DNA of 64,000 bases, taken from NCBI GenBank assembly GCA_028710985.1, contig JAQTTB010000001.1, positions 167,397 to 231,396 of the forward strand, written 5' to 3'. Positions 5,125 to 52,813 of this stretch are shown here, in pieces. Both the position numbers and the translations under genes were made by a program. The stretch is from Patescibacteria group bacterium (GTDB lineage Bacteria > Patescibacteriota > Patescibacteriia > JAHJFT01). The first letter of the stretch is position 1; each line of letters begins with the position of its first letter. The notes beneath the pieces were generated by a model. It did no database searches and was not told where the DNA came from. It worked only from the letters and a program-made list of their open reading frames with translations.

Positions 5125-5730
5125 ATGGAAGAGGAAAAAATCACCATTATCGTCTGCCGCCACCCGGGACATAACGAAAGGGGCATCACGCTCGAAGGCA
5201 TCGTGAACGCCATCAAGCTCGCCCGCTACCTGGTTGATGACCGGGGATTTATGCCCGAGCGCATTGTCCACTCGGGAACGGTCCACACGCGCATGGCCGC
5301 GAGCTTCATGGGCATCTCGGTGAACATGTGCGAACTCCGGCCCGAAGAGAACCAGGGTTTCCTGACCGCACCAAAACTCGTTCTGCCCGGAGAGAATGAG
5401 CTCGAAAAGGCAAGAATCGAAAGCGAGATCGCGGCGGCCGGCGGCATGGTCAAGGCGGCGCGCGAACTCTCGGCCCGGGTCCGCCGCCAGCGCGATCACC
5501 TACAGCTCACCCTGCACGGACTCGCCATGGACATGCGCGAGCACCGCCAGAACGTCGCCTGGGTCGTCTCCCACGGCGCCTTCGCCGAACTCGCCACCAC
5601 GCGCGCCGACAAGACACCCTACCCCATCGCAAACTGCGATTCCTTGATCTACTCCATGGGTCCGGATAGGGGCGGATACGCGGTCATGGACACCGACTAC
5701 ATCCGCTTCGCGGATCTCAACCTCAAGTGA
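5125..5730 (+). CDS. GC-rich (about 62% GC) hypothetical protein, possible histidine-phosphatase (SixA/PGAM-like) fold
   Basis: ORF with strong SD. IIVCRHPGH is an RHG-like motif, and ...VVSHGAFAEL resembles the second His motif of the histidine phosphatase superfamily. Codon usage is GC3-rich, unlike its neighbours. Confidence 0.5.
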   Translation: MEEEKITIIVCRHPGHNERGITLEGIVNAIKLARYLVDDRGFMPERIVHSGTVHTRMAASFMGISVNMCELRPEENQGFLTAPKLVLPGENELEKARIESEIAAAGGMVKAARELSARVRRQRDHLQLTLHGLAMDMREHRQNVAWVVSHGAFAELATTRADKTPYPIANCDSLIYSMGPDRGGYAVMDTDYIRFADLNLK

Positions 5731-5800
5731 GCGGCCCCGGCCCCTTGGCCGCGGCGCACGAAAAAACCGACGACTCTCTGTCATCGGTTATTTTTTTTAA

Positions 5801-6319
5801 TTATTCGCCCAATTCAATTAATTTAATCGGATTATTAATAATATAATTGCGGATTCTCTCCAAATCGTCATCGCATCGGACGATATGATCATAATACGAT
5901 CTTTGCCATCGAAAATCCGTTAAACCCATTTGATGAATTAATTTTGATGATGTGGTTTTAAACGCGCCAATCAATTCGGGAATCGGTTTAATTTTTCCCG
6001 GTAGGGACAGGTCGCGACCTGTCCCTACGTCGTGGTCGCGACCTGTCCCTACGATGGGATTATTGATGATTATTATTCCATGAAAATGGTTGGGCATTAC
6101 AACGGATTGATCCAATTTGATATATAAATATTGTTCCGCTAACCACAACCATTGTTTTTTGACAATCTCGCCAAATTTATTTAATTGCATCACGCCGTCA
6201 TGAATGCAACCGAAAACATGCGAACGATCATTAACACATGTGGTAATAAAATAAAAACCGTTTTGCGAATAATCGTACTCGCTCAAACGGTTTAATTTTC
6301 TATCCTTCTCTTGCGGCAT
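5801..6319 (-). CDS. IS200-like / REP-associated tyrosine transposase (RAYT) with an in-frame REP palindrome insertion
   Basis: Start taken at MPQEKDRK (Met 43 of the track ORF 5801..6445, which otherwise overlaps the upstream gene). HuH motif MPNHFHGIIII. Catalytic-Tyr region RSYYDHIV...YIINNPIK. Between these motifs the palindrome GTAGGGACAGGTCGCGACCTGTCCCTAC (plus a partial second copy) encodes GTGRDHDVGTGRD. Confidence 0.7.
   Translation of the reverse strand: MPQEKDRKLNRLSEYDYSQNGFYFITTCVNDRSHVFGCIHDGVMQLNKFGEIVKKQWLWLAEQYLYIKLDQSVVMPNHFHGIIIINNPIVGTGRDHDVGTGRDLSLPGKIKPIPELIGAFKTTSSKLIHQMGLTDFRWQRSYYDHIVRCDDDLERIRNYIINNPIKLIELGE
6001..6052. repeat. REP-like palindrome GTAGGGACAGGTCGCGACCTGTCCCTAC (1.8 copies, tandem) inside the RAYT ORF
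   Basis: Perfect 28 bp palindrome at 6001..6028, followed by GTCGTGGTCGCGACCTGTCCCTAC. A near-identical copy is at 38011..38038. Confidence 0.8.
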
Positions 6320-6329
6320 TATAAAAAAA

Positions 6330-7265
6330 TTAAAGAGTTGTAATCGGCCGTGATTGGACGATATAAAATTTTCCGCCCTCAAGCGCCCATTCAATATCCT
6401 GCGGCGCGCCGTAATGCTCTTCGATTTTTTTACAAATTTTCGCAAGCGCGACGATGTCTTTATTGGAAATTTTTTGCACGGTCTGGCGCTCGCGGGGAAC
6501 CGCGGTCTCCCTGGTGCCGACCGTGCTCTGTGAAATCATTTTTTCCTGGCGGCTCACATTCACGTCCAGAATCGCGAGCGTTGGCTTATCGACAATATAC
6601 GTATCCGGCGTGATGATGCCGCCGACAATCGCCTCACCCAGTCCCCAGCCCGCCTCAATCACCATTTGGTTTAAATCCTTGGTTACCGGATGCGCGGTAA
6701 AACAAATGCCCGAAACCTCGGACTGAATCATCTTTTGTACGACAACCGCTACCAAAACTTTTCTTTCATGCAGATTTTTTTCAAAACGGTAAAAAATCGC
6801 GCGCGGCGTATAAAGCGATGACCAACATTTTTGAATCGCGGCCGCGATCCGCCCCTCGGTGATATCAAGATATGATTCCAACTCTCCGGCCCAGGAAGCA
6901 ATTGCCGAATCCTCGGCCGTGGCGGATGAACGCACGGCCACAAATTCCGCGCCCAAATCTTTAAATGACTTTTTAATCTCTCTCGCCATCTCTTCCGGAA
7001 ACTCGGCATCGCGGATTAAGTCGCGGATTTTTATTGACGCCTCTTCCACGGATTTAATATCCTGTGAATTTACTTTTTTGAGAATCGCCGCGATTTCCAC
7101 GTTCAAATCCGAAATTTTCAAAAATTCGTCAAATGCCGAAGCGAGCACCACGAATCCGGGCGGCACCGGCATCTTGGCCCGGGTCATCTCACTGAGCGAC
7201 GCCCCCTTGCCGCCGGCAATAGCCACGTCTTTGGCAGAAAGCTGTTTAAAATTTTTGATAAACAT
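6330..7265 (-). CDS. PEP synthase / pyruvate phosphate dikinase-like N-terminal ATP-binding (PPDK_N) domain protein
   Basis: MFIKNFKQLSAKDVAIAGGKGASLSEMTRAKMPVPPGFVVLASAF matches the PPDK_N/PEP synthase nucleotide-binding domain consensus. It is the second gene of a two-gene unit with 7267..8403. Confidence 0.75.
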   Translation of the reverse strand: MFIKNFKQLSAKDVAIAGGKGASLSEMTRAKMPVPPGFVVLASAFDEFLKISDLNVEIAAILKKVNSQDIKSVEEASIKIRDLIRDAEFPEEMAREIKKSFKDLGAEFVAVRSSATAEDSAIASWAGELESYLDITEGRIAAAIQKCWSSLYTPRAIFYRFEKNLHERKVLVAVVVQKMIQSEVSGICFTAHPVTKDLNQMVIEAGWGLGEAIVGGIITPDTYIVDKPTLAILDVNVSRQEKMISQSTVGTRETAVPRERQTVQKISNKDIVALAKICKKIEEHYGAPQDIEWALEGGKFYIVQSRPITTL

Positions 7266-7266
7266 A

Positions 7267-8403
7267 TTATTTTGCCTTTCTGATTACGGTAACGCTTCCC
7301 CGCGTCGCGTCCACTTCCACCTCATCCCCGTCTTTCAGAACCTGCGTCGCAATTTTGGTGCCGGTGATGCACGGAATTTTAAATTCCCGGGAAACGATGG
7401 CCGCGTGGCAGGTGATGCCGCCCTCGTCGGTGATGATTGCTTTGACGCCCCGGAGATACGGAATAAAATGCGGCGTTGTTTGAACCGCGACCAGCACCCG
7501 GCCGTTGATTTTATTAGTTTTGCGCGCCAGTTCGCGGGCATTGCGCGCCAGCACGACTTGTCCGCGCACCCGGCCGCGAAAAGCCGGTGCGCCAAAAACC
7601 TGATTATCTTTCATCTGATATTTTTTATTTTCCGCAACCATGAGAATGTCCAAAAATTTCACGATCCCGGGAACGACTTTCTTATTGCTGATTACTTCCG
7701 CCTCCCGGCCATTCAGGCAAACAAAAATTCGTTTTCCGGCCTTTCCCTGCGCCACGATTCGGCGCGCCTCGCGGGCCGTAATTTCTCCGCGCTTAATTTT
7801 TATCACTTCTTCAACCGTAAAATATTTCATTATATCCTTGGCGGAAATTTTAATATTCAATCTCCGAATCAGCCGCCGGATGCTTTTAAAAAGCATCTCC
7901 CCCAATTTTTCCTCGGGCAAAGCCTGCGCGTTGCGCCAGCGATCGTGCTCGGCGAGCGCGCGCCGAGCAAGGGCGCCGGAAAATTTTTCCGTATTTTCCC
8001 TCATCACCTTGCCCAAAGAAAAAATTATCAAAAAAAGCGCGCTGTGCCGGCCGTAAACTTTTCGGAATTCTTCAAAATCACCGGCCCGTGCCGCGGCTCT
8101 CATTTTCGGCCAAAGCGCGTCATCTTGCTTTATATATTTATTAATAATTCCATTGTCCCGCAAAGCACACTTGAGCGAACGCGCATGAAACCGTTTGGCA
8201 TCGGCCAGATTAAAAATTCGCACCGGCAAAACCCGGCCGGACGCCACCCAAATTTCACCGATCGTGCCCGGCCAGCCGTACTGTTTCATCAGCGCATTCC
8301 GGTTTAAAAAAGCTGACGTAATAAAAAACATGGACTCATCGACCCGCACGCCGAAGAACCATTTTTGCCTCTTGATATCGCGGGAAATATTAATACTCAT
8401 CAC
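7267..8403 (-). CDS. PEP-utilizing enzyme mobile (phosphohistidine) domain protein
   Basis: The C-terminus AIITDEGGITCHAAIVSREFKIPCITG is the PEP-utilizers phosphohistidine swivel-domain signature (GGxTSHAAIxARExGIPxV). The ~250 aa N-terminal region is unassigned. Confidence 0.7.
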   Translation of the reverse strand: MMSINISRDIKRQKWFFGVRVDESMFFITSAFLNRNALMKQYGWPGTIGEIWVASGRVLPVRIFNLADAKRFHARSLKCALRDNGIINKYIKQDDALWPKMRAAARAGDFEEFRKVYGRHSALFLIIFSLGKVMRENTEKFSGALARRALAEHDRWRNAQALPEEKLGEMLFKSIRRLIRRLNIKISAKDIMKYFTVEEVIKIKRGEITAREARRIVAQGKAGKRIFVCLNGREAEVISNKKVVPGIVKFLDILMVAENKKYQMKDNQVFGAPAFRGRVRGQVVLARNARELARKTNKINGRVLVAVQTTPHFIPYLRGVKAIITDEGGITCHAAIVSREFKIPCITGTKIATQVLKDGDEVEVDATRGSVTVIRKAK

Positions 8404-10093
8404 TTACAATATAGTTTATCCCGTTCAATTTTTCAATTCCCAGATTGGCGAAATTTCCGGCCGCGCTCCGCCAGAGATTGGAAAAACCCCAGCCGTTCCA
8501 GCGCCAGACGGCAATGAACCGGTTTTCGCCGCCATAATCCCCCTCGATCGCCACAAGTTCGGGTTTGCCGTCTTCATCAATATCGTTTATGGCAAACTCG
8601 CGGTTCGGCGCGTCCAGATTTGACGACTGCCAAACCGGGGTCATTTTTTTATCCGCGTAATCAAACACGAAAAAATGATTTTTTACTTCCGCGCCGCCCT
8701 CTTCCCAGAAAGGATGCGAATCGCCGAAACTTCCGGATTTCCAGACCGACATGCTGATATCCGGCGCACCGTCGCCGGTTGAATCCGCAAGCGTAAAATC
8801 ATCAACCCACCAGTCCTCGGACGACTGCCAGACAATTCCCTCGCTCTCTTTTATAGTGAGCGTGCCGTTTTCCAAAATATATTGCTCTAAATTTTTGTCA
8901 TTATCCAGATCCTGCACCATAATTTTTAACAAATTATATTCCTGCGCTTCGCGGTCCGGATATATGGCCGGCCGCCCGGAAACCGCATCGACATTTCCGC
9001 GCACAATCATCCGGTTCGCGGTCTGAATCTTGAGCCTCGCCGCGATTGCCGCGCCGGTTTTCTCATCCGCAGGCTGGGGCTGGGCATAATCAAAAATTTT
9101 AACCGGCATTAATTCAATTTTCGATACGCCGGATTTTGTGAAAAATGCTTTTACCGCAATCCCGCGCCGCGTCTCCTCGGACCACATCTGGTCAAACACA
9201 AAATTTCCCAGTGAATAAAAAATATATTTGCCTTTATAAATTTCCGCCGACTGCACCACATGAGGATGATGGCCGATAACCATGTCCGCGCCGGCGTCAA
9301 CCGCCGCGCGCGCGAAATCCGTCTGTGTCCTGCCCGGCTCGGCCTGATACTCTTCGCCCGCGTGCATTGAGACGATCACGAAATCCGCCTCTCCCCGCGC
9401 GCGCCGCACCGCGCCCTGCATCTTCTTCGCGTCCATGACCGCGACATCCGCGTTTTTATTAACAAAATTATTTTGCGCGTAGGAGAGAAAAGCGAAACGC
9501 ATGCCCTTGATCTCGCGGTAAACCGGCGCGTACGGATCATCGGCCGCGCCGGAATATTGAATGCCTTCGGCATCAAGAAATTTATAAGTGCTCGCGAGGC
9601 CCTCGGCGCCGAAATTCAAAATATGATTATTTGCAAGCGACATTACCCGGAAATTGGCGTCCGCGAGCGCCCGCTCGGCTCCGGGATCGGCGTGAAAAAC
9701 CATTTCGTAAGTCTTAATTTCACGTCCCGCAACAATCGGCGATTCCAGATTGCCAAAAACCATGTCCGCCCCGCGGAGATAATCCCCCATCGCGCTAAAC
9801 GGATAATTTATATCCTTCTTTGCGCGCATCTTTGTCGCCACATCCCGCGATAGCATCACATCCCCCACGAAAATCAAAGAAGCCTCCTCCGGCTCGGAGG
9901 GAAGCTCCAATTTTCGCGCCTTAAAATTTGTAAATTCCGATACCGGCTGCGCGTCCTGCGCCGCCCCGACAGCGGTCGGGGACGGTATGATATAATTTTT
10001 GCGGCTCAAAATAAAAAGGCTCTCGTACCACAAAATTGATGCCGTGGCAATGGCAATGCTCGCACAAAAAATTATTAAAACGGATTTCTTCAT
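8390..10093 (-). CDS. CapA/PGA_cap family metallophosphatase with C-terminal FG-GAP/VCBS-like repeats, membrane anchored
   Basis: Start taken at MKKSVLIIF (the track ORF extends to 10162). LIFVGDVMLSR...GNLESP...SLANNHILNFG...VIGHHPHVVQ..YSLGNFVFDQ are CapA/YwtB-like motifs. The C-terminus has repeats of the type DIDEDGKPELV. Confidence 0.7.
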   Translation of the reverse strand: MKKSVLIIFCASIAIATASILWYESLFILSRKNYIIPSPTAVGAAQDAQPVSEFTNFKARKLELPSEPEEASLIFVGDVMLSRDVATKMRAKKDINYPFSAMGDYLRGADMVFGNLESPIVAGREIKTYEMVFHADPGAERALADANFRVMSLANNHILNFGAEGLASTYKFLDAEGIQYSGAADDPYAPVYREIKGMRFAFLSYAQNNFVNKNADVAVMDAKKMQGAVRRARGEADFVIVSMHAGEEYQAEPGRTQTDFARAAVDAGADMVIGHHPHVVQSAEIYKGKYIFYSLGNFVFDQMWSEETRRGIAVKAFFTKSGVSKIELMPVKIFDYAQPQPADEKTGAAIAARLKIQTANRMIVRGNVDAVSGRPAIYPDREAQEYNLLKIMVQDLDNDKNLEQYILENGTLTIKESEGIVWQSSEDWWVDDFTLADSTGDGAPDISMSVWKSGSFGDSHPFWEEGGAEVKNHFFVFDYADKKMTPVWQSSNLDAPNREFAINDIDEDGKPELVAIEGDYGGENRFIAVWRWNGWGFSNLWRSAAGNFANLGIEKLNGINYIVSDEY

Positions 10094-12387
10094 TCTGCCG
10101 TAAATTCCTGCGTCCAATCCGGTAACTCCGGCGCATCCGCTGTTTCGAGAAGCTCGCGCCACTTCCCGTCAGTCAGCCGGTCGCTCATCGGCCATGGAAA
10201 TTCATAATAAGAGAATGCTCCGCCCTTCGCGATGCGAAGCGCGCCGTCGATTGGAACAATCACGAGGATCTCCGAAACATTACCCACGCCCTCCTCGAGA
10301 ACATAACCCCTCGGATCGGTTGCCACATCCGCGATAATCGCCGCCGGACGGTCATCGAGTTGCGACACGGATAATATACCTTCGTTGCGGAAGGCTTCGA
10401 TCCAGAAATGTTCCAGCTGGCCGCCGAACGAACGGATTATTTCATATTCATCATCAGTGAGAGATACATTCTCAAGTTCTTTTTCAGAAATCGTCTTGAG
10501 CGAGAGCGTCAGCTCTTCCATGCGCGCGAGATTATCCTGATTGTCATCGCTCAAAAGATCGCGAATATCTAAACCCTCGCGCGTCATTTTAGTAAGCGCG
10601 GCAAGGCGTGCGTAAACATACGGATTGGGTTCAACATAACCGCGGTCGTCAACCTGCTCCTGGGGCCCGCCGCCAAGTTCGGCATAAACCTGCTTGGCAT
10701 AAAGAATCGTATCATGCTTGAGTTCGGCCCATGATCCGAGGTAAGTATTGATCTCCTTGCGCGCCCACGCGAGATTGGTCATAAAAACCGGATATCCGTA
10801 ATCCTTCTTGCCCGTAAGCGGCAAAATTGAATAAAGCCAGCCCCAGTAAAGATTCTGCGTCCAGGTTTCGGCATCAAGCCCCTTGATATATTCCCTCATC
10901 TTGCCCATGTTTTCGGGATAATTTTCATATTTCGTTTCTCCCGCCTGCTGCAAGATGCTGTAAGCCTCGGCCGAACCCATTGCCGCCGGAATATCCAGGC
11001 CCTTGGGCAACATGCGGCGCGCGCCGTCCGGATTTTCCTTGACCTCGCGGTAAACAAGTCGCTGAAAAACCGACGCATCAAGCGTGAAGCGCTGGCCCAT
11101 GAACCGGAAACCCAAAATCTCGCGCTCGCGGTCCGGATTCAGGCTTTCGTCAAATATCGGAATTGAATTGATTTGCGGCGGGGCAAGCTTTTTTGCCCCC
11201 TCCCAGAAATTCATGAATTTGTTCTCGTCGCCGAGAATTCCCGCGCTGTCGGTTTCAAGCCCGTAGACCTGCTCCACGAGTTTACCGAGATCGTAAAAAG
11301 AAATATCATCGCTCTTTCCCACGAAGAAATTCGTGGGCTCGTAAATTCTCTCCCACACGTCTTTGTTGCTCTCGTTCATGAGTGCCACGGTGATAAGGAG
11401 CGCGGAACGTGTCTCATCGTCGCTCTTGAAACGAAAAGTCATCCGGCCATACCACATCATTGATTTAAAATATGCTTTTAGTTCCTCACTTCGATCATAA
11501 TGCCCGCGTGGAATATATTGCGAATAATCTTCTTCGAGATTTTCAACCGGATTAACCGGCGCCTGCTCGCCATCGCTACGCCCGCCTGCCATCGCCTGGC
11601 CGGCGTAGGCCTGGCGGGCAGGCTCAGGCGTTAGCGGGCGAGCGCCTGCGTTCATGAGCGGCGAAACCGCGATCCCCTGGTGCGCGGCGATGAGAGCGAG
11701 CTCGGCATTCACTAGGTCACTGACGTAATCCGGAGTCTCAATGCTCGAATCGAGCAGTTTGCTTCCAACCGCGAAAAATCCGACGCTCCTTTTTGCCGCG
11801 TTCTCCCAGGCGGTGCCGCGCAGATCCTCATACTGCTTTTCGCTCTCCGCGAGCATCAGGGCGTTGAGATTCTTGAGCTCGGCCGCAAGATACTCCTCCT
11901 CCACGGTTTTCAGGAGATGATCGAACAAGAGATGATAATTATGCAAAATCGAATCCGTGGTTACAAAATTCGGAATATTGTCATATCGGTTCGATTCATA
12001 CACTGAAAAAAATTCTTTATACGCGGCCGGAATAACCACAAAAGCATCCTTTGCAAGTAGCTCCTCGGCGCTTGAAGAAAATTCAAATTTGTCCCGGTTG
12101 GTGATATTGGCAAAATCCGCTTCAACGGCGTAAATCGGCACCCGGGCGGTAAAACTGACCGGCACGGCCTCATAGTCCGCGAAACGCGACGCCACGGCAA
12201 CCGGCGGTTCAACCAAATCGCCGATCGCGTCGCCGATATTCTGGATGATGTCCCCGGTTTTTCCGCCGGATGAATAATTCGCCAGATACAAATAAACGCC
12301 CGCGCCCGCTAATCCAACAAGGGCGACGATCAAAATTATTAAAATCACGTTTACTCCGCGGCTCTTTTTTGCTTTTTGTTTGGGCAT
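10090..12387 (-). CDS. Large membrane-anchored hypothetical protein (765 aa)
   Basis: Long ORF with an N-terminal Lys-rich segment and TM helix (NVILIILIVALVGLAGAGVYLYLA), a Gly/Ala-rich linker, and 4 nt overlap with the downstream CapA start. No confident family assignment from sequence alone. Confidence 0.55.
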   Translation of the reverse strand: MPKQKAKKSRGVNVILIILIVALVGLAGAGVYLYLANYSSGGKTGDIIQNIGDAIGDLVEPPVAVASRFADYEAVPVSFTARVPIYAVEADFANITNRDKFEFSSSAEELLAKDAFVVIPAAYKEFFSVYESNRYDNIPNFVTTDSILHNYHLLFDHLLKTVEEEYLAAELKNLNALMLAESEKQYEDLRGTAWENAAKRSVGFFAVGSKLLDSSIETPDYVSDLVNAELALIAAHQGIAVSPLMNAGARPLTPEPARQAYAGQAMAGGRSDGEQAPVNPVENLEEDYSQYIPRGHYDRSEELKAYFKSMMWYGRMTFRFKSDDETRSALLITVALMNESNKDVWERIYEPTNFFVGKSDDISFYDLGKLVEQVYGLETDSAGILGDENKFMNFWEGAKKLAPPQINSIPIFDESLNPDREREILGFRFMGQRFTLDASVFQRLVYREVKENPDGARRMLPKGLDIPAAMGSAEAYSILQQAGETKYENYPENMGKMREYIKGLDAETWTQNLYWGWLYSILPLTGKKDYGYPVFMTNLAWARKEINTYLGSWAELKHDTILYAKQVYAELGGGPQEQVDDRGYVEPNPYVYARLAALTKMTREGLDIRDLLSDDNQDNLARMEELTLSLKTISEKELENVSLTDDEYEIIRSFGGQLEHFWIEAFRNEGILSVSQLDDRPAAIIADVATDPRGYVLEEGVGNVSEILVIVPIDGALRIAKGGAFSYYEFPWPMSDRLTDGKWRELLETADAPELPDWTQEFTAE

Positions 12388-12453: not shown

Positions 12454-13086
12454 CTAAATATTTTCTATTCTTTTATAACAAGTTAATTCGGCACCCTCAA
12501 TCTGAAAAGATTTTTCAAATTTAATTGCATCAGATTTATAAAAGGCTTCTCCGTCGAATGAAGGATCGTGAATTACTATCTCATCACCATTAATATCTAA
12601 TATAACCACCCTATGCAAAGAATAACGCGGCGGTTCTTCACCATATATTACCCATGGGTCTAGCATAACATCACAAACATAGTCTTTAGAAAAAAAATCC
12701 TTCAGCAAGGACACTGTCGGCTTTTGATAATAAAATTTAAAATTCTTACTTGCCAATAAATACTTAAGATCAACTTGATATTCGGCGGGATTAGCGATTC
12801 TATCGTTTAAAAAAATAAACGCCTTGGGGTCAATGTCTTCCCGAAATTTTGAGAATCCATCTTTCGCCCAAGTATTATAATTATTCTCACTAAAATCCAC
12901 AATCTCAACATCATTCTTTTCCACTAAAAACTTCCAAAAAGGAGCGAATCCTATTTCAGATTTTGTAATTTTTAAGATATCCTCCAGTGAATAATGCAAG
13001 CCCAGGGCATTCGCCACCATCGTGAAGTCTGCCGACGCGCAAGATGTTTCATCGATTTGTTTAATTTGAAGAATATTATATTTCAT
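12454..13086 (-). CDS. Papain-like cysteine peptidase domain protein (C39-like, putative)
   Basis: Very AT-rich ORF. A candidate Cys nucleophile sits in ETSCASADFTMVANALG (compare C39 NDCGxAxLAMI). A downstream HRVVILDINGDEIVIHDP motif is a candidate His/Asp region. No signal peptide. Confidence 0.4.
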   Translation of the reverse strand: MKYNILQIKQIDETSCASADFTMVANALGLHYSLEDILKITKSEIGFAPFWKFLVEKNDVEIVDFSENNYNTWAKDGFSKFREDIDPKAFIFLNDRIANPAEYQVDLKYLLASKNFKFYYQKPTVSLLKDFFSKDYVCDVMLDPWVIYGEEPPRYSLHRVVILDINGDEIVIHDPSFDGEAFYKSDAIKFEKSFQIEGAELTCYKRIENI

Positions 13087-13148
13087 TGTCTAAACCAATC
13101 AAATAATATAGTATATTAAGTGTATATTATATAAATTACAGCAAAACA

Positions 13149-14186
13149 ATGAAAAAATCAATGGAAGCAATATCTTTAAAGTGGGTAAGCCCTTTTTGGT
13201 ATTTAGGCTGTGATCAAAATTGCCAAGAATGTTTTATAGGTGAAAAAAATCGCGTAATTACTAATCTAGATATCAGGAAAAAAGCGATAGATACTCTGGC
13301 AAATAATAAAACCGAGGAAATTTTTTTATGTGGTGGTAACCCGATATTAGATCCGTTTATTGAAAAAACAGTTGAATATATCAAAACAAAAAAAATTTTA
13401 GTCGAGCTATTGAGCAACAGCTGGGATATTAATGGAAATAAATCTATAAAAAATAAAGAAAAATTTCTTCGTAATATTGATGATAGGGCCGCTACCTTTT
13501 GGGGAGGAGATGCTCAGACTCATGACAAAATATGCGGCTGCGTTGGCTCTTTTTCTAGATTAATGAATAACTTGGAAAAAATTTCCCGACAAGGATATCC
13601 TGTAATCTGTATTTTAAATGTCGTGCCGCAAAATAAAAATGACATTTATAAAACAATTAAAGAACTTAAAAGTAAAATTAATATAACTAAAGTCTGGTTG
13701 CAAAGAATATTCCCATATGGCAATGCGCTGCAAAGTGATTCTTCGACAATTTCGTTGCGACCTAATGATTTTAATTTAATTTTGAAACAATTAGTTAAGG
13801 CAAAGAATGATTTCAATTTAACGGATATATCTCTTGATTCAACTCCGCCTTTCTGCATGGTTGATAAAAAGTATTTCCAACTTATAGAAACATATAAGAG
13901 AGGGCTTTCGTTTTGGGCCTTAGATTATAAATGTAGATTATTTGGGGAATCTTTTGATGTTATAAATCCAGAATTTGCCCTGTTTGATGGAAAACCAATT
14001 TATGAAGTTGATAATCTGATCAATACAATCAAAAAAGATCCCCGAACGCAAGAGATCTTTGCCAAAAAATATTTACCCGAGAAATGCAAAATATGTGATA
14101 TCGATGAATGCTTCGGCGGATATTTAGTAAGAGATAAAGACGGACAATTAATAGTTGACCCCGTTCTATCAAAAAATTTAAGCTAA
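13149..14186 (+). CDS. Radical SAM enzyme with C-terminal SPASM-like Cys cluster (peptide-maturase-like)
   Basis: CDQNCQEC is the CX3CX2C radical-SAM motif near the N-terminus. FLCGGNPILDP is a GGEP-like SAM-binding motif. The C-terminus has CKICDIDECFGG plus earlier Cys (CMVD, CRLFG), consistent with SPASM/twitch auxiliary clusters. ~30% GC. Confidence 0.7.
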   Translation: MKKSMEAISLKWVSPFWYLGCDQNCQECFIGEKNRVITNLDIRKKAIDTLANNKTEEIFLCGGNPILDPFIEKTVEYIKTKKILVELLSNSWDINGNKSIKNKEKFLRNIDDRAATFWGGDAQTHDKICGCVGSFSRLMNNLEKISRQGYPVICILNVVPQNKNDIYKTIKELKSKINITKVWLQRIFPYGNALQSDSSTISLRPNDFNLILKQLVKAKNDFNLTDISLDSTPPFCMVDKKYFQLIETYKRGLSFWALDYKCRLFGESFDVINPEFALFDGKPIYEVDNLINTIKKDPRTQEIFAKKYLPEKCKICDIDECFGGYLVRDKDGQLIVDPVLSKNLS

Positions 14187-14903
14187 TTTACCTCCATCTA
14201 CGGGAAGGCAAACTCCGTTTATATAACTAGCTTCCTCGCTTATAAAAAATGAAATGGTATTCACTATTTCTAATAAATCCGCCATCCTACCGATTGGGGT
14301 AGACTGTTCATAATTTATAATTTCCCTTTTAAATTCTTCTGTATTTTTTGAGTAAAATCTAGCGGCATTAATTGCCATACCTTTTCTACCTATAGCGGCG
14401 GGACAAATAGAATTGCAAGTAATATTATACTTAGCATACTCTTTAGCCATTGTTCTCGTCAGTCCATTTAAAGCAAACTTCGTTACGTTATATGAAACAG
14501 TATATTCATATCCTCTTAAACCATTGATTGAAGAGATATTAACAATTCTGCCCCAATTTTGTTTCATCATATGAGGCAACACTAGCTTAGAAATTTTAAA
14601 AGGAAGCATTAAGTTTACTTCAAATGCTTTACGCATCATTTCATCTTTAACAGTATGGGTTGCCCCTCCGAACGAGCCGACTCCGACTGCATTAATTACA
14701 ATATCAAAATTTTTGGGTACTTTTCTTATATCTAAGTCCACGACCTGGATTGGACGGGCAGAAAATTTTTTACCTAAAGCTCCTGCTTCTTTTTTTGAAC
14801 TGTTATAGGTAAATGATATCTCATATCGTTTCTTGAGAGAAAGGATCTCTAGCAATTCTTTACCTAAAGCACCAGTACCGCCGGTAATTAATATTTTTTT
14901 CAT
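14178..14903 (-). CDS. Short-chain dehydrogenase/reductase (SDR) family oxidoreductase
   Basis: The N-terminal ILITGGTGALGKEL is a Rossmann TGxxxGxG motif. Y-x3-K is in YNVTK. 241 aa, typical of classical SDRs. AT-rich like its two neighbours. Confidence 0.8.
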   Translation of the reverse strand: MKKILITGGTGALGKELLEILSLKKRYEISFTYNSSKKEAGALGKKFSARPIQVVDLDIRKVPKNFDIVINAVGVGSFGGATHTVKDEMMRKAFEVNLMLPFKISKLVLPHMMKQNWGRIVNISSINGLRGYEYTVSYNVTKFALNGLTRTMAKEYAKYNITCNSICPAAIGRKGMAINAARFYSKNTEEFKREIINYEQSTPIGRMADLLEIVNTISFFISEEASYINGVCLPVDGGKLA

Positions 14904-14960
14904 AAAAATTAATTAAATTTGTTTATAAATGAATTATACCATTTCTTACTGCTTAAACAC

Positions 14961-14988
14961 AAAAAATCGCCGTTTAGGCGATTTTTTT
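14961..14988. terminator. Bidirectional terminator (aaaaaatcgccgtttaggcgattttttt)
   Basis: Hairpin atcgcc-gttta-ggcgat flanked by A6 and T7, lying between the SDR gene start region and tRNA-Pro. Confidence 0.6.
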
Positions 14989-15023
14989 AACTACTCGAGT
15001 CTCTAGATAAAAAAGTCTTTTAA

Positions 15024-15096
15024 TCGGGCTGACCGGACTCGAACCGGCGACCTTACCCACCCCAAGGGTACGCGCTACCAACTGCGCTACAGCCCG
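15024..15096 (-). tRNA. tRNA-Pro (anticodon GGG)
   Basis: Reverse complement: CGGGCTG-TA-GCGC-AGTTGGTA-GCGC-G-TACCC-TTGGGGT-GGGTA-AGGTC-GCCGG-TTCGAGT-CCGGT-CAGCCCG-A. A clean cloverleaf, 73 nt, with no encoded CCA. Confidence 0.8.
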
Positions 15097-48326: not shown

Positions 48327-48370
48327 TGAGATACAAAAAATCACCCTTACGGATGATTTTTTGATAATCC

Positions 48371-48484
48371 CGGCAATGACCTACTTTTCCGGACGCTAGG
48401 CGTCCAGTAACATCGGCGCTGGAGGGCTTAACTACCGTGTTCGATATGGGAACGGGTGTGGCCCCTCCGCGAAAATCACCAGGG
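48371..48484 (-). rRNA. rrf: 5S ribosomal RNA
   Basis: The reverse complement CCTGGTGATTTTCGCGGAGGGGCCACACCCGTTCCCATATCGAACACGGTAGTTAAGCCCTCCAGCGCCGATGTTACTGG... matches the 5S helix I/loop B/loop C consensus. Ends are approximate (+/-5 nt). Confidence 0.85.
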
Positions 48485-49011: not shown

Positions 49012-49780
49012 CATTCTGTTACTTTGCCAAACCACATCCGTTTTCAACCGGTGCTCTGTGGTGATTCCGACTTTCGTCGGAACTCTGCATGTCGCCATGC
49101 AGTTCGGACTATATCTTATCCCGATATATTTCGGAATTTCGGCATATAGTCTCTGAGGATTTCAAGGAATCTAATACAATTTTCTTATTAATTTTTCGGT
49201 ATTTACCGGCGCAATTCATACTGTAAGCAAAGCAAATAATTCTTTTAGCGCCATCAATGGTTGAGTGATCTGCATTCTCCATCATATCCACTATGCGCTT
49301 AAAAATTACCATTGCGTCATGTTTCTTTGAAATTAAAGGATACTTCTCGAAAAATGGAATTATCGTCTTTCTTAAGTCATTCCTATTTCTAACCACATAC
49401 ACCAGCGTATCATCTTTTTTATTTCGAGCGTGATTATTTTTGATATAGCCACAACCGAAATAATTTTTAATCGCTTCCAGAGTTTCTTTACGCAAATAAC
49501 TCTGATTTATGTGGAATTCAGGAATGAATTTAAGACCTGTTTTCATTTTTGCGTCTTTATAAATCGCAATATGAAAAGTTCCTTCGCCTTCAACGAAACC
49601 GGTAATATACCATGGATTTAGATTCTTCGATCTTTCCTGCTGATTATCTGCACTCATCACTTTTTTACTTTAATATATATATTATATCAAAGTAGTGTGA
49701 GATTCACAAGCCTCACTCCTTTTTGAGGCTCTCCAGACTTTCCAGCATTTAGCCGAATTTATAGACAGCACGATCTTCAT
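49012..49780 (-). mobile_element. Group I intron in 23S rRNA at the I-CreI-type site (E. coli ~2593, after GAGACAGT)
   Basis: The 23S exon sequence GAACGTCGTGAGACAGT | TCGGTCTCCTATCCACCATGGGCG is split by 769 nt that contain a LAGLIDADG ORF. Confidence 0.8.
49109..49660 (-). CDS. LAGLIDADG homing endonuclease (single-motif, I-CreI-like)
   Basis: WYITGFVEGEGTF is a LAGLIDADG motif near the N-terminus. 183 aa, AT-rich, encoded entirely within the 23S intron. Confidence 0.8.
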   Translation of the reverse strand: MMSADNQQERSKNLNPWYITGFVEGEGTFHIAIYKDAKMKTGLKFIPEFHINQSYLRKETLEAIKNYFGCGYIKNNHARNKKDDTLVYVVRNRNDLRKTIIPFFEKYPLISKKHDAMVIFKRIVDMMENADHSTIDGAKRIICFAYSMNCAGKYRKINKKIVLDSLKSSETICRNSEIYRDKI

Positions 49781-49824
<44 letters not shown>

Positions 49825-49837
49825 TGGCGAACAGCCA

Positions 49838-49893
<56 letters not shown>

Positions 49894-50002
49894 TCTCCGT
49901 CGTCGATATGGACTCTTGGACGGAATCAGCCTGTTATCCCCGGAGTAGCTTTTATCCGTTGAGCTCCCGCCGTCCTACTTCGAACGGTCGGATCACTAAC
50001 TT

Positions 50003-50034
<32 letters not shown>

Positions 50035-50382
50035 GCAGTAAAGCCGACTTATGCGTTTGCACTTTCAGCCCGATTTCCATCCGGGCCAAGTCGACCTTTG
50101 TAAACGCCTCCGTTACTTTTTAGGAGGCAACCGCCCCAGTTAAACTACCCACCAGTTACTGTCTCCCAAACCGGATTCACGGTTCGAGATTAGAATACAC
50201 ACAACACAAGGGTGGTATCTCACTGTTGTCCCGAAGGACTCCCACCTATTCTGAACATGCGGAGCATGTATCCAATAACAAGTTATAGTAAAGCTTCACG
50301 GGGTCTTTTCGTCCAGCCATGGGTAAATCGCATCTTCACGACTCTTGTAATTTCACCGAGTCCCTCGTTGAGACAGTCCCCC

Positions 50383-50413
<31 letters not shown>

Positions 50414-50415
50414 CG

Positions 50416-50461
<46 letters not shown>

Positions 50462-51267
50462 GCGTTCATCCGCGCTTAAGATCAAGGCTTTTCCCGAAGG
50501 ATAACCTCTCCCCTTAACGTTCGGACACTGGCCAGGCATCAGCCCCTATACATCACCTTACGGTTTAGCAGGGACCTGTGTTTTTGGTAAACAGTCGCTA
50601 GGAATACTTTAGCTGCGCCCCAACACGAGGTTGGGGAGGCTTTATCCCGAAGTTACAGCCGCTTATTTGCAGAGTTCCTAAACGAGGGTTCTCTCGTACG
50701 CCTTGGCACACTTATGCCCACCCACCTGTGTCGGTTTACAGTACGGATACCTAAAAGTTTAATGCTAGAGGCTTTTCTTGGCTCCACGTCTTCTCATATT
50801 GGCCGGTATTACCAGCCTTTAGATCGCCTGCGGCCTGATGGCCCGCGGATTTACCTGCGGACCGGCGCGCAAACGCCCTACGCATATAACCAAAATACGC
50901 TAGAGATTTCGGGAAGCGTCCCCCCATCGCGCTCTTAGGTAGTGCAGGAATATTAACCTGCTCATCCATCGGTTACGCCTTTCGGCCTCACCTTAGGACC
51001 GACTAACCCTGGGACGAAGGTCGTTGCCCAGGAAACCTTGGGTTTACGGCGGAGAGGATTCTCACCTCTCTTTTTGTTACTAATGCCAACATTCTCTCTT
51101 CTCATCGCTCCACCGAACCTCACAGTTCGACTTCAACGCAATGAGAACGCTCCTCTACCACTCGCTCCGATAAATCGGAACGAATTCTCGTCTTCGGTAC
51201 TAAGTTTTAGCCCCGAAATATTTTCGGCGCAAAGCAACTTGACCAGTGAGCTGTTACGCTATCTTTA

Positions 51268-51305
<38 letters not shown>

Positions 51306-52813
51306 AGTCGCTCCACAGCCTTTCACACTTAACCTAGATTTTGGGACCTTAGACGGAGATCTGGGCTTTTTCCCTTTCGACTAATGGAGCTTAGCCCCCA
51401 CAGTCTGACTGCCAGGAACACTTTACGGTATTCGGAGTTTGGTTAGGAGGAGTAGATTTCTCCCTCCGTCCCATTCAGTGCTCTACCCCCGTAAAGCTAT
51501 TAACTGACGCTAGCCCTAAAGCTATCTCGAGGAGAACCAGCTATTACCGAGTTCGATTGGAATTTCTCCGCTATCCACAACTCATCCCCGCGTGTTGCAC
51601 GGCGCGTGAGTTCGGGCCTCCATTCCGCCTTCGCGGAACTTCACCCTGGTCATGGATAGGTCACCCGGTTTCGGGTCTTGCATGCGCTACCATAGACGCC
51701 CGTTAAGGCTCGCTTTCACTATGGCTCCGCCCCCGCAGGGGCTTAACCGGCAACGCATGACAAACTCGTTGGCTCATTCTTCAATAGGAATGCCGTCACC
51801 CCGACTTGCGTCGGGGCTCCGACTTTTTGTAAGCACACGGTTTCAGATACTGTTTCATCTCCCTTCCGGGATGCTTTTCAACTTTCCCTCGCGGTACTTG
51901 TTCACTATCGATCACAAGAAGTATTTAGTCTTGCCACATAGTCGTGGCTGATTCCCACAGGATTTCACGAGTCCCGTGGTACTCTAGGTTGAATGCTATA
52001 AATAGAGATCCCCTTTCGCGTACAGGGCTATCACCTTCTTTGGCTCCGCTTTCCAGCGGATTCTACTAGGGAAGATCGCTTTATTTACCAAGGCTTGCAA
52101 GCGCCTTGAACGCAAACACCCGCAACCCCCCGCAGACATATGGTCTTGCAACCTTAGGCGCAAACTCTATTTCACCCGAAGGTGTCACTTTGTTCACGCT
52201 TGGTCTGCGAGGTTTGGACTGATCCCTTTTCGCTCGCCACTACTCAGGGAATGGGCTGACCGATAAGTATCCGGCTCGCAAGATACGAGCCAAATACTTA
52301 AGGCCAGCATTGTTTTCTGTTCCTCTGGCTACTGAGATGTTTCACTTCGCCAGGTTGCCTTCTTGCACCTATGTATTCAGTGCAAAATATCCCATTCTTC
52401 CAATGGGATGGGTTTCCCCATTCGGATATCCCCGGGTCAAAGGTTGCTTGCCACCTAACCGAGGCTTTTCGCAGGCTGCTACGTCCTTCATCGTCTTCTT
52501 ATGTCGAGTCATCCTCCGTGCGCTCTTCGTGCTTCTACAACCATTTAAACTTTTTAGTTCAAATGGCACGTACAAGATTTTAATGATGCTATTTACTCGT
52601 CATTATTAAATTGTCAATGTTCACTTGGCCTTGTGGCCAAACCCTGTTCGTCTGGTCGCAAGTGAGTCAAAAAACCGCCCGGTCGTGTCCAAGCGGTGCG
52701 AAAACAAGCATTAAAACTGCGTCAACTGATTGGACACGTATTTGATTGGCTTGAAACTCTCATATTTTAGCGAAAAAATGCTCTTTTTATGATAATTATT
52801 TTAAACTGCCCAT

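Follow-up and report, generated by a model that had tools for sequence, protein, structure and literature searches.

Organisation of the gene pair

Two adjacent genes, here called A and B, were analysed in a 64,000-nucleotide stretch of contig JAQTTB010000001.1 (GenBank assembly GCA_028710985.1, positions 167,397 to 231,396 of the forward strand) from a Patescibacteria group bacterium; the whole stretch is referred to as the window, and positions are counted from its first letter. Gene A encodes a protein that ends in a phosphohistidine swivel domain, and gene B encodes an ATP-grasp protein of the PPDK_N type. The features of the pair are as follows.

7267..8403, minus strand: gene A, predicted phosphohistidine-carrier and acceptor-side subunit, open reading frame (ORF) of 378 amino acids (aa)
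7618..8403, minus strand: N-terminal domain (N-domain) of gene A, presumed to bind the acceptor, residues 1-262, from alignments A1 and A2 and AlphaFold2 (AF2)
7270..7611, minus strand: swivel phosphohistidine domain of gene A, residues ~265-378, PF00391
7265..7269, minus strand: A/B junction, with the stop codon TAA of A at 7269..7267, one nucleotide at 7266 and the ATG of B at 7265..7263
6330..7265, minus strand: gene B, predicted stand-alone ATP-grasp (PPDK_N) nucleotide-binding subunit, 311 aa, NCBI MDD4995009.1

For gene A, the called start codon is the ATG at 8400, for a protein of 377 aa (NCBI MDD4995010.1), as against the GTG at 8403 that gives 378 aa, and from the ATG the gene shares 11 nucleotides (nt) with the end of the PGA_cap gene upstream. 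The junction reads ...AAA TAA T ATG TTT, and its 1-nt spacing suggests that translation of A and B may be coupled. The identical two-gene arrangement was present in an independent Logan assembly (L001), a protein in the collected set (P0001) was 100% identical to that of gene A, and the NCBI annotation of the Patescibacteria metagenome-assembled genome lists MDD4995010.1 and MDD4995009.1 as consecutive separate proteins. The split between A and B is thus real, as indicated by the independent assembly and by the many Patescibacteria relatives that are likewise split.

The spacing of only 1 nt, together with a gene resembling a REP-associated tyrosine transposase (RAYT) of the IS200 type immediately downstream, might point to an artefact or to decay, that is, to a frameshift, a misassembly or the degenerating remnant of a longer gene similar to those of phosphoenolpyruvate (PEP) synthases. 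However, joining A to B would yield the order N-domain, swivel, ATP-grasp, so that a frameshift could not restore a canonical PpsA, an outcome for which the preliminary description of this DNA, made from its letters alone, had allowed. Gene order and the independent assembly ruled out a frameshift or fusion as the explanation of the split. Furthermore, the ORF limits of A and B fall exactly on domain borders, about 50 clusters of split A-type proteins (350-400 aa) share invariant residues and a high-confidence fold, and stand-alone homologues of gene B are 61-70% identical to it, with more than 120 clusters among the matches listed (Patescibacteria, Kazan and Moranbacteria). We therefore regard artefact or decay as extremely improbable.

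Catalytic domains of the two proteins

Pfam placed PF00391 at residues 301-369 of gene A (E 6e-24), and the translation carries the motif TDEGGITCHAAIVSREF. The swivel motif T325-D-E-G-G-I-T331-C-H333 lies 46 residues from the C-terminus, with the codon of the catalytic His333 at 7405..7407, and it matches the signature T/SxxGGxxxH reported for rifampin phosphotransferase (RPH), PpsA, CreH and HpeH (PMC12167813). Gene B is a full-length PPDK_N domain, as PF01326 covers residues 16-310 of its 311 (Pfam, E 1e-97), and it matched the stand-alone 387-aa chain 9goj_A of the PDB with an E-value of 1e-52. In an alignment using native numbering, K20, R112, S131 and E292 of gene B corresponded to K22, R117, T136 and E297 of RPH-Lm, which position ATP (PMC4844700). 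Judged from this alignment, the ATP-binding residues of gene B are intact.

The preliminary description had recorded two minus-strand genes 1 nt apart, the upstream one ending in a His swivel domain behind an N-terminus of about 250 aa that it could not assign, and the downstream one consisting of an isolated PPDK_N domain; the ORFs, the junction and the domain matches agree with it on each of these points. Its statement that the IS200-like gene overlaps the 3' end of B did not hold, being an artefact of the longest ORF, which opens at TTG 6445; the called ATG at 6319 leaves a gap of 10 nt.

Structure and distribution of the N-domain

The first ~260 residues of gene A had no Pfam match, even at E<=10. 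The AF2 model of gene A, computed with 54 homologues, showed two domains with a predicted local distance difference test score (pLDDT) of 93.3 and a predicted template modelling score (pTM) of 0.90, and the N-domain modelled alone reached a pLDDT of 91.9, so that both models were confident. The N-domain was mainly helical with a small beta-sheet. In alignments A1 and A2, W15, F124, G131, W156-R157-N158 and E199 were invariant, and R20, S76, F128, S129, H153, E164 and R220 were near-invariant, a pattern of conservation that would fit a binding or catalytic site. The domain is rare: an exhaustive search of 1.84 billion cluster representatives with a hidden Markov model (HMM) of the N-domain returned only 74 clusters at E<=1e-3, of which about 50 were split proteins of 350-400 aa and about 16 were proteins of 600-735 aa, those mapped with HMMs carrying a fused PPDK_N domain.

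The top PDB fold match of gene A in Foldseek was the RPH structure 5fbt (E 4.6e-10). RPH-Lm structures matched at E ~5e-10 with template modelling scores normalised to the query (TMq) of 0.37-0.39, and swivel-only matches reached 0.24-0.27. The region just before the swivel domain appeared RPH-like because NCBIfam aligned residues 146-376 of gene A to the C-terminal positions 671-892 of the RPH-like model PRK06241 and because positions 200-385 of the A1 profile aligned to residues 698-866 of RPH-Lm. Only ~60 pre-swivel residues of gene A align to RPH (698-766), and the W156-R157-N158 and E164 region lies outside every alignment to it. The profile of the N-domain had no meaningful match among PDB sequences, and no RPH sequence was among its hits; for the model of the N-domain alone, Foldseek against the PDB gave nothing better than E 0.46. 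On these comparisons, the N-domain is not demonstrably of the rifampin-binding type.

Absence of a TIM barrel and affinity to PEP synthases

With six PpsA C-terminal domains as queries, tblastn detected no PEP-binding TIM barrel (PEP-utilizers_C, PF02896) anywhere in the 64 kb of the window or in family loci totalling 183 kb, and Pfam found no PF02896 match in the protein of gene A or gene B. Nor did tblastn with A and B detect a second swivel domain or a second PPDK_N domain in the window. The barrel queries were drawn from a scan of a genome collection with a full-length alignment, which relied on swivel-domain patterns and returned 80 loci; 79 of them held ordinary PpsA-like or other swivel proteins, an archaeal locus (L002) held the sole full-length relative, and the set served only as the source of these queries.

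In view of their domains, A and B probably form the two subunits of a split 'mini' ATP-dependent dikinase of the PEP-synthase/rifampin-phosphotransferase superfamily. The preliminary description had similarly favoured a two-component, RPH-like phosphotransferase over a gluconeogenic enzyme and had noted no TIM-barrel gene nearby, leaving room for a PEP-binding gene immediately adjacent in a longer context; none was found in the window. The intact domains, the missing barrel, the RPH-Lm fold match and the conserved pairing of the genes support its view of the pair, but the likeness to RPH does not demonstrably extend to the N-domain.

Several observations weigh against reading the pair as a split dikinase of the RPH kind. 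The N-domain alone has no detected sequence or fold similarity to the rifampin (RIF)-binding domain or to any other PDB entry, and its putative role as acceptor site is suggested by its position. Genuine PEP synthases also outscored RPH for both domains. The PEP synthase model PRK06464 of NCBIfam gave 340 bits for gene B and 93 for gene A (cut-off 598), compared with 285 and 52 bits for the RPH model NF041857 (cut-off 999), and TIGR01418 gave 325 and 82 bits (cut-off 739.75), all of these scores being far under the family cut-offs. Both domains were thus nearest in sequence to PEP synthases (PRK06464 and the P. furiosus structure 8a8e), and the nearest PDB sequences for the swivel domain of gene A were the PEP synthases 8a8e and 9dae, followed by RPH. 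In addition, gene A keeps the Thr of PEP synthases two residues before His333, where HpeH has Met (PMC12167813).

Such affinities would be expected if the pair were part of a genuine PEP synthase in several pieces, with the TIM-barrel protein encoded elsewhere in the genome and the N-domain used for docking or oligomerisation. In favour of it are the top matches of both genes among NCBIfam models and PDB sequences (PRK06464 and 8a8e) and the Thr retained in GGITCH, which is of the regulatory type found in PEP synthase and pyruvate phosphate dikinase (PPDK) (PMC12167813). However, neither the window nor the 183 kb of family loci holds a PEP-utilizers_C domain, fused relatives terminate after the swivel domain in an RPH-type architecture, and arrays of several swivel genes with unrelated N-terminal domains, described below, are ill-suited to a single housekeeping reaction. 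A multi-part PEP synthase is therefore quite unlikely in our judgement, and the split dikinase remains the preferred reading.

Gene order, fusions and multi-swivel cassettes in relatives

A metagenome scan with a hand-made degenerate pattern, KxQKWFFG[VI]R, yielded 21 loci. A neighbourhood survey, as suggested in the preliminary description, found an A-type gene beside or near a stand-alone PPDK_N gene (311-321 aa) in nine of nine relative loci with full context, as well as at the window locus. The gene orders were as follows.

A then B: the window and L001, L083
A, one or more other swivel genes, B: L082, L110
B then A: L084, L107
B, one or more other swivel genes, A: L108, L109
Swivel gene, A, a gene on the opposite strand, B: L085

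The junction in L083 was similarly tight, with a 4-nt gap, and in L082 a single nucleotide separated the PPDK_N gene from an adjacent 605-aa swivel gene. Natural fusions of 681-684 aa with the order PPDK_N, N-domain, swivel were found in L088, L090, L094 and P0057. In these proteins, the ATP-grasp domain ends in ...QxRPITxL/I, a linker of ~10 residues follows and the N-domain begins with ...YIKSQKWFFGVR; the linker corresponds exactly to the end of gene B and the beginning of gene A in the window, and the fused proteins stop directly after the swivel domain. In a rough neighbour-joining tree built from the N-domain, which is indicative only, fused and split forms were interleaved. The preliminary description had called the window pair 'domain-swapped'. 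Although A does precede B there, the term overstates the case, since A before B, B before A and B-A fusions in the canonical order all occur in the family. From the loci compared, gene order looks clade-specific, and the clade of the window appears to have A upstream of B wherever the order is known. As a separate observation, P0007 (601 aa, partial) combines a swivel domain, an A-type N-domain and a second swivel domain in one ORF.

Several loci contained arrays of two to four swivel genes next to one ATP-grasp gene.

L109, 1..4562: cassette of PPDK_N followed by swivel proteins of 353 aa, 368 aa, 381 aa (A) and 356 aa
L108, 3031..7252; L107, 4048..11149; L110, 5001..10146: further cassettes, each with one PPDK_N gene and two to four swivel-His genes (342-606 aa)

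The N-terminal domains of these cassette proteins were mutually unrelated. When the N-terminal parts of four groups of swivel paralogues were compared with the N-domain of gene A, hhalign indicated no relationship (probabilities 0.1-74%); the best case was weak and involved only ~50 pre-swivel residues. The idea of a single N-domain fold for all short carriers was consequently dropped. L110 also holds a 364-aa swivel ORF at 6156..7250 that had not been called, and swivel proteins of ~605 aa (L082 6206..8023, L110 7383..9203) start with a winged-helix/ArsR-like region and show weak RedH/PigC-like similarity. Homologues of gene A were 28-46% identical to it and thus far less conserved than those of gene B, a difference that would fit a shared ATP-charging subunit serving several partners.

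Apart from PPDK_N and other swivel genes, no neighbour was conserved across the inspected family loci. A highly conserved DUF2196 protein of small size (62-66 aa) was located beside the dikinase genes in L082 (8971..9159), L083 (4743..4937) and L110 (4283..4483), and TrmB-family regulators recurred in L083, L107 and L110. The DUF2196 protein, the TrmB regulators and a recurring 208-aa protein were considered as parts of the window locus and rejected, as none is present in the window.

The same phospho-His relay might instead serve a macromolecular acceptor, either a protein, as in the transfer from Enzyme I to HPr in the phosphotransferase system (PTS), or an envelope polymer by analogy with glucan, water dikinase, in which case the N-domain would be a docking domain. 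The helical bundle of the N-domain, which has no enzyme-like fold match, is compatible with such a role, as is the match of positions 211-384 of the A1 profile to the N-terminal domain of Enzyme I. The pair also directly follows envelope-related PGA_cap and DUF3160 genes on the same strand, and the DUF2196 protein recurs in three family loci. However, the family loci have no conserved neighbours beyond the PPDK_N and swivel genes, the window has neither DUF2196 nor TrmB, and the similarity to Enzyme I is essentially that of the swivel domain, with a template modelling score normalised to the target (TMt) of ~0.3. Furthermore, the characterised relatives that lack a TIM barrel (RPH, PigC/RedH, PpsAB, CreHI and HpeHI) all use small molecules (PMC4844700, PMC12167813). 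We consider a macromolecular acceptor unlikely, although less so than a multi-part PEP synthase, and a small acceptor is assumed for the split dikinase below.

Flanking genes and other features of the window

Genes A and B lie in a run of same-strand genes consisting of DUF3160, PGA_cap/FG-GAP, A, B and RAYT, with short gaps or slight overlaps between them. The following features accompany the pair.

5801..6319, minus strand: RAYT/IS200-like tyrosine transposase gene, called start ATG 6319, 10 nt after the stop of B
5765..5789, minus strand: strong terminator-like hairpin downstream of the RAYT/IS200-like gene, its 10-bp stem leading into a T run, consensus match
8408..8436, minus strand: promoter-like -35/-10 elements (TTGAAA, 17 nt, TATATT) from a consensus scan, immediately before the start of A and within the 3' end of the PGA_cap gene

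The RAYT-like gene matched REP_Tyr_transpos of NCBIfam with an E-value of 1.6e-15, which is below the cut-off, and Y1_Tnp of Pfam weakly. The transcription unit of A and B probably ends at the hairpin. The consensus scan found 20 promoter-like sites where 10.6 were expected, so that a single site of this kind means little.

Upstream of A, 8390..12387 on the minus strand encodes a 590-aa PGA_cap and FG-GAP protein and a 765-aa DUF3160 protein, with small overlaps; this association was seen only in the window genome and L001, and not in the other family loci. A 482-aa shadow ORF (6859..8307, plus strand) runs across A and B on the opposite strand. Convergent to the A/B run, a 201-aa ORF (5125..5730, plus strand) lies in a locally GC-rich stretch (0.535); neither Pfam nor NCBIfam gave a match for it. 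Its N-terminus, IIVCRHPGHNERG, recalls by eye what we take to be the RHG motif of histidine phosphatases.

Farther upstream, the GC content falls to ~0.32 over ~12500..15000, compared with ~0.50 in the flanks. This stretch contains ORFs at 12454..13086, 13149..14186 and 14178..14903 and adjoins a tRNA-Pro gene (15024..15096, minus strand); from its composition, it may be an integrated foreign element. The 23S rRNA (49749..52539) and 5S rRNA (48368..48483) genes, on the minus strand, are ~1.26 kb apart with a 183-aa ORF (49109..49660) between them, and tRNA-Ala and tRNA-Leu genes are located just upstream of the 23S rRNA gene. Rfam detected no 16S rRNA in any part of the 64-kb window, and the rRNA operon seems to be either unlinked or interrupted.

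Discussion

Two-component dikinases form first a pyrophospho-His and then a phospho-His intermediate, with AMP and Pi as products (PMC12167813). The dikinase mechanism has been established for RPH and PpsAB and is supported for HpeHI (PMC4844700, PMC12167813). By homology and architecture, a comparable reaction sequence may be proposed for the window pair, in which chemistry, contact between A and B and the nature of the acceptor are all conjectural. Gene B would take Mg-ATP in its ATP-grasp cleft, and the C-terminal swivel domain of A would dock onto B. His333 would attack the beta-phosphate and take the beta-gamma pyrophosphate, with release of AMP, and the gamma-phosphate would be hydrolysed to Pi. 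The phospho-His swivel domain would then swing back to the N-domain of A itself, where the phosphate would pass to a bound acceptor. Overall, by way of phospho-His333, ATP + acceptor + H2O would yield AMP + Pi + phospho-acceptor. A small hydroxyl-bearing molecule is the most likely acceptor, and W15, F124, F128, H153, W156, R157, N158, E164 and R220 would be candidates for lining its putative pocket.

The multi-swivel cassettes lend themselves to a broader and more tentative scenario, which we put forward as conceivable rather than probable. In Patescibacteria, one highly conserved ATP-grasp 'engine' of the gene B family might charge interchangeable swivel-His carriers with different acceptor domains, some of them of hitherto unseen fold, like the N-domain of gene A, so that several unrelated scavenged metabolites, toxins or envelope components could be phosphorylated, and the window pair would represent a minimal version with one carrier.

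In present annotations, such genes go under the names 'PEP-utilizing enzyme' and 'PEP/pyruvate-binding domain protein', or 'pyruvate, water dikinase', so that metabolic reconstructions of bacteria of the Candidate Phyla Radiation (CPR) could attribute PEP synthesis and gluconeogenesis to them in error. This misassignment would disappear if A and B were recognised as a two-component dikinase without a TIM barrel. Such a recognition would also bring ultra-small symbiotic bacteria into an enzyme subfamily that was defined only recently and has hitherto been associated with the catabolism of aromatic compounds. Both the compact N-domain, for which no relatives are known, and the multi-carrier cassettes point to unexplored ATP-driven phosphorylations, with conceivable roles in scavenging, detoxification or the modification of the envelope. 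Specialists would find nothing surprising in the architecture of A and B itself; what merits experiment is the rare N-domain together with the cassettes of one engine and many carriers, and the system is small enough for direct in vitro work. In the literature, no CPR-specific description of such systems was found.

Comparison with known systems

In plant glucan, water dikinase, a phospho-His domain precedes a nucleotide-binding domain of the PPDK_N type, the same order as A then B in the window. It is a single large eukaryotic polypeptide with N-terminal starch-binding modules, and it showed no similarity to the N-domain of gene A. Enzyme I of the PTS has a helical subdomain for HPr binding within its swivel domain and a C-terminal PEP-binding TIM barrel; only its swivel part matches gene A, and the window has no such barrel. 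PpsA and PPDK share the GGxTCHAAIVSRE motif with the window genes, but each consists of one polypeptide with the TIM barrel (PF02896) behind the swivel domain, and this barrel is absent from the window pair. They also have no counterpart of the 260-aa domain that separates the ATP-grasp and swivel domains in the window family.

RPH (PDB 5fbs, 5fbt and 5hv1; NF041857) and the PRK06241 group, which includes PigC/RedH, have in common with the window family the logic of an ATP-grasp domain, an acceptor domain and a C-terminal swivel domain, and the fused relatives of the window genes have exactly the domain order of RPH. The acceptor domain of RPH presents a catalytic Arg666/Glu667 pair facing the His. 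RPH is one polypeptide of ~865 aa with a 430-aa RIF-binding domain, whereas the window encodes two polypeptides.

The closest published parallels are PpsAB, the phenylphosphate synthase of Thauera aromatica, CreHI of Corynebacterium glutamicum and HpeHI of Rhodococcus rhodochrous, two-component homologues of RPH in which both components are needed (PMC12167813). As in the window pair, one subunit unites the acceptor region with the C-terminal swivel His, the ATP-grasp domain is a separate subunit and a TIM barrel is lacking, so that a two-component split with the same division of labour has already been published. The H/A-type subunits of these enzymes are, however, ~70 kDa, whereas gene A has only 378 aa and an N-domain of 262 aa. 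The acceptor domain of HpeH aligns with the RIF-binding domain of RPH over ~470 residues, but the N-domain of gene A has no detectable similarity to it, and PRK08296 models match only the swivel part of gene A. Going by these alignments, the window pair lacks one defining feature of PpsAB, CreHI and HpeHI, namely the large acceptor domain of the RIF-binding type. Unlike HpeH, which has Met at the position two before the His, gene A has Thr, and unlike the published systems, the pair occurs in a CPR host with no aromatic-catabolic genes nearby, and its related loci contain several paralogous swivel subunits for each ATP-grasp gene. What is new here is thus the rare N-domain, the multi-carrier cassettes around one ATP-grasp gene and the CPR host with its reduced genome. 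Set beside these enzymes, the window pair appears to represent a compact, CPR-specific lineage with a presumed acceptor domain that resembles no characterised one, inside a modular multi-carrier system.

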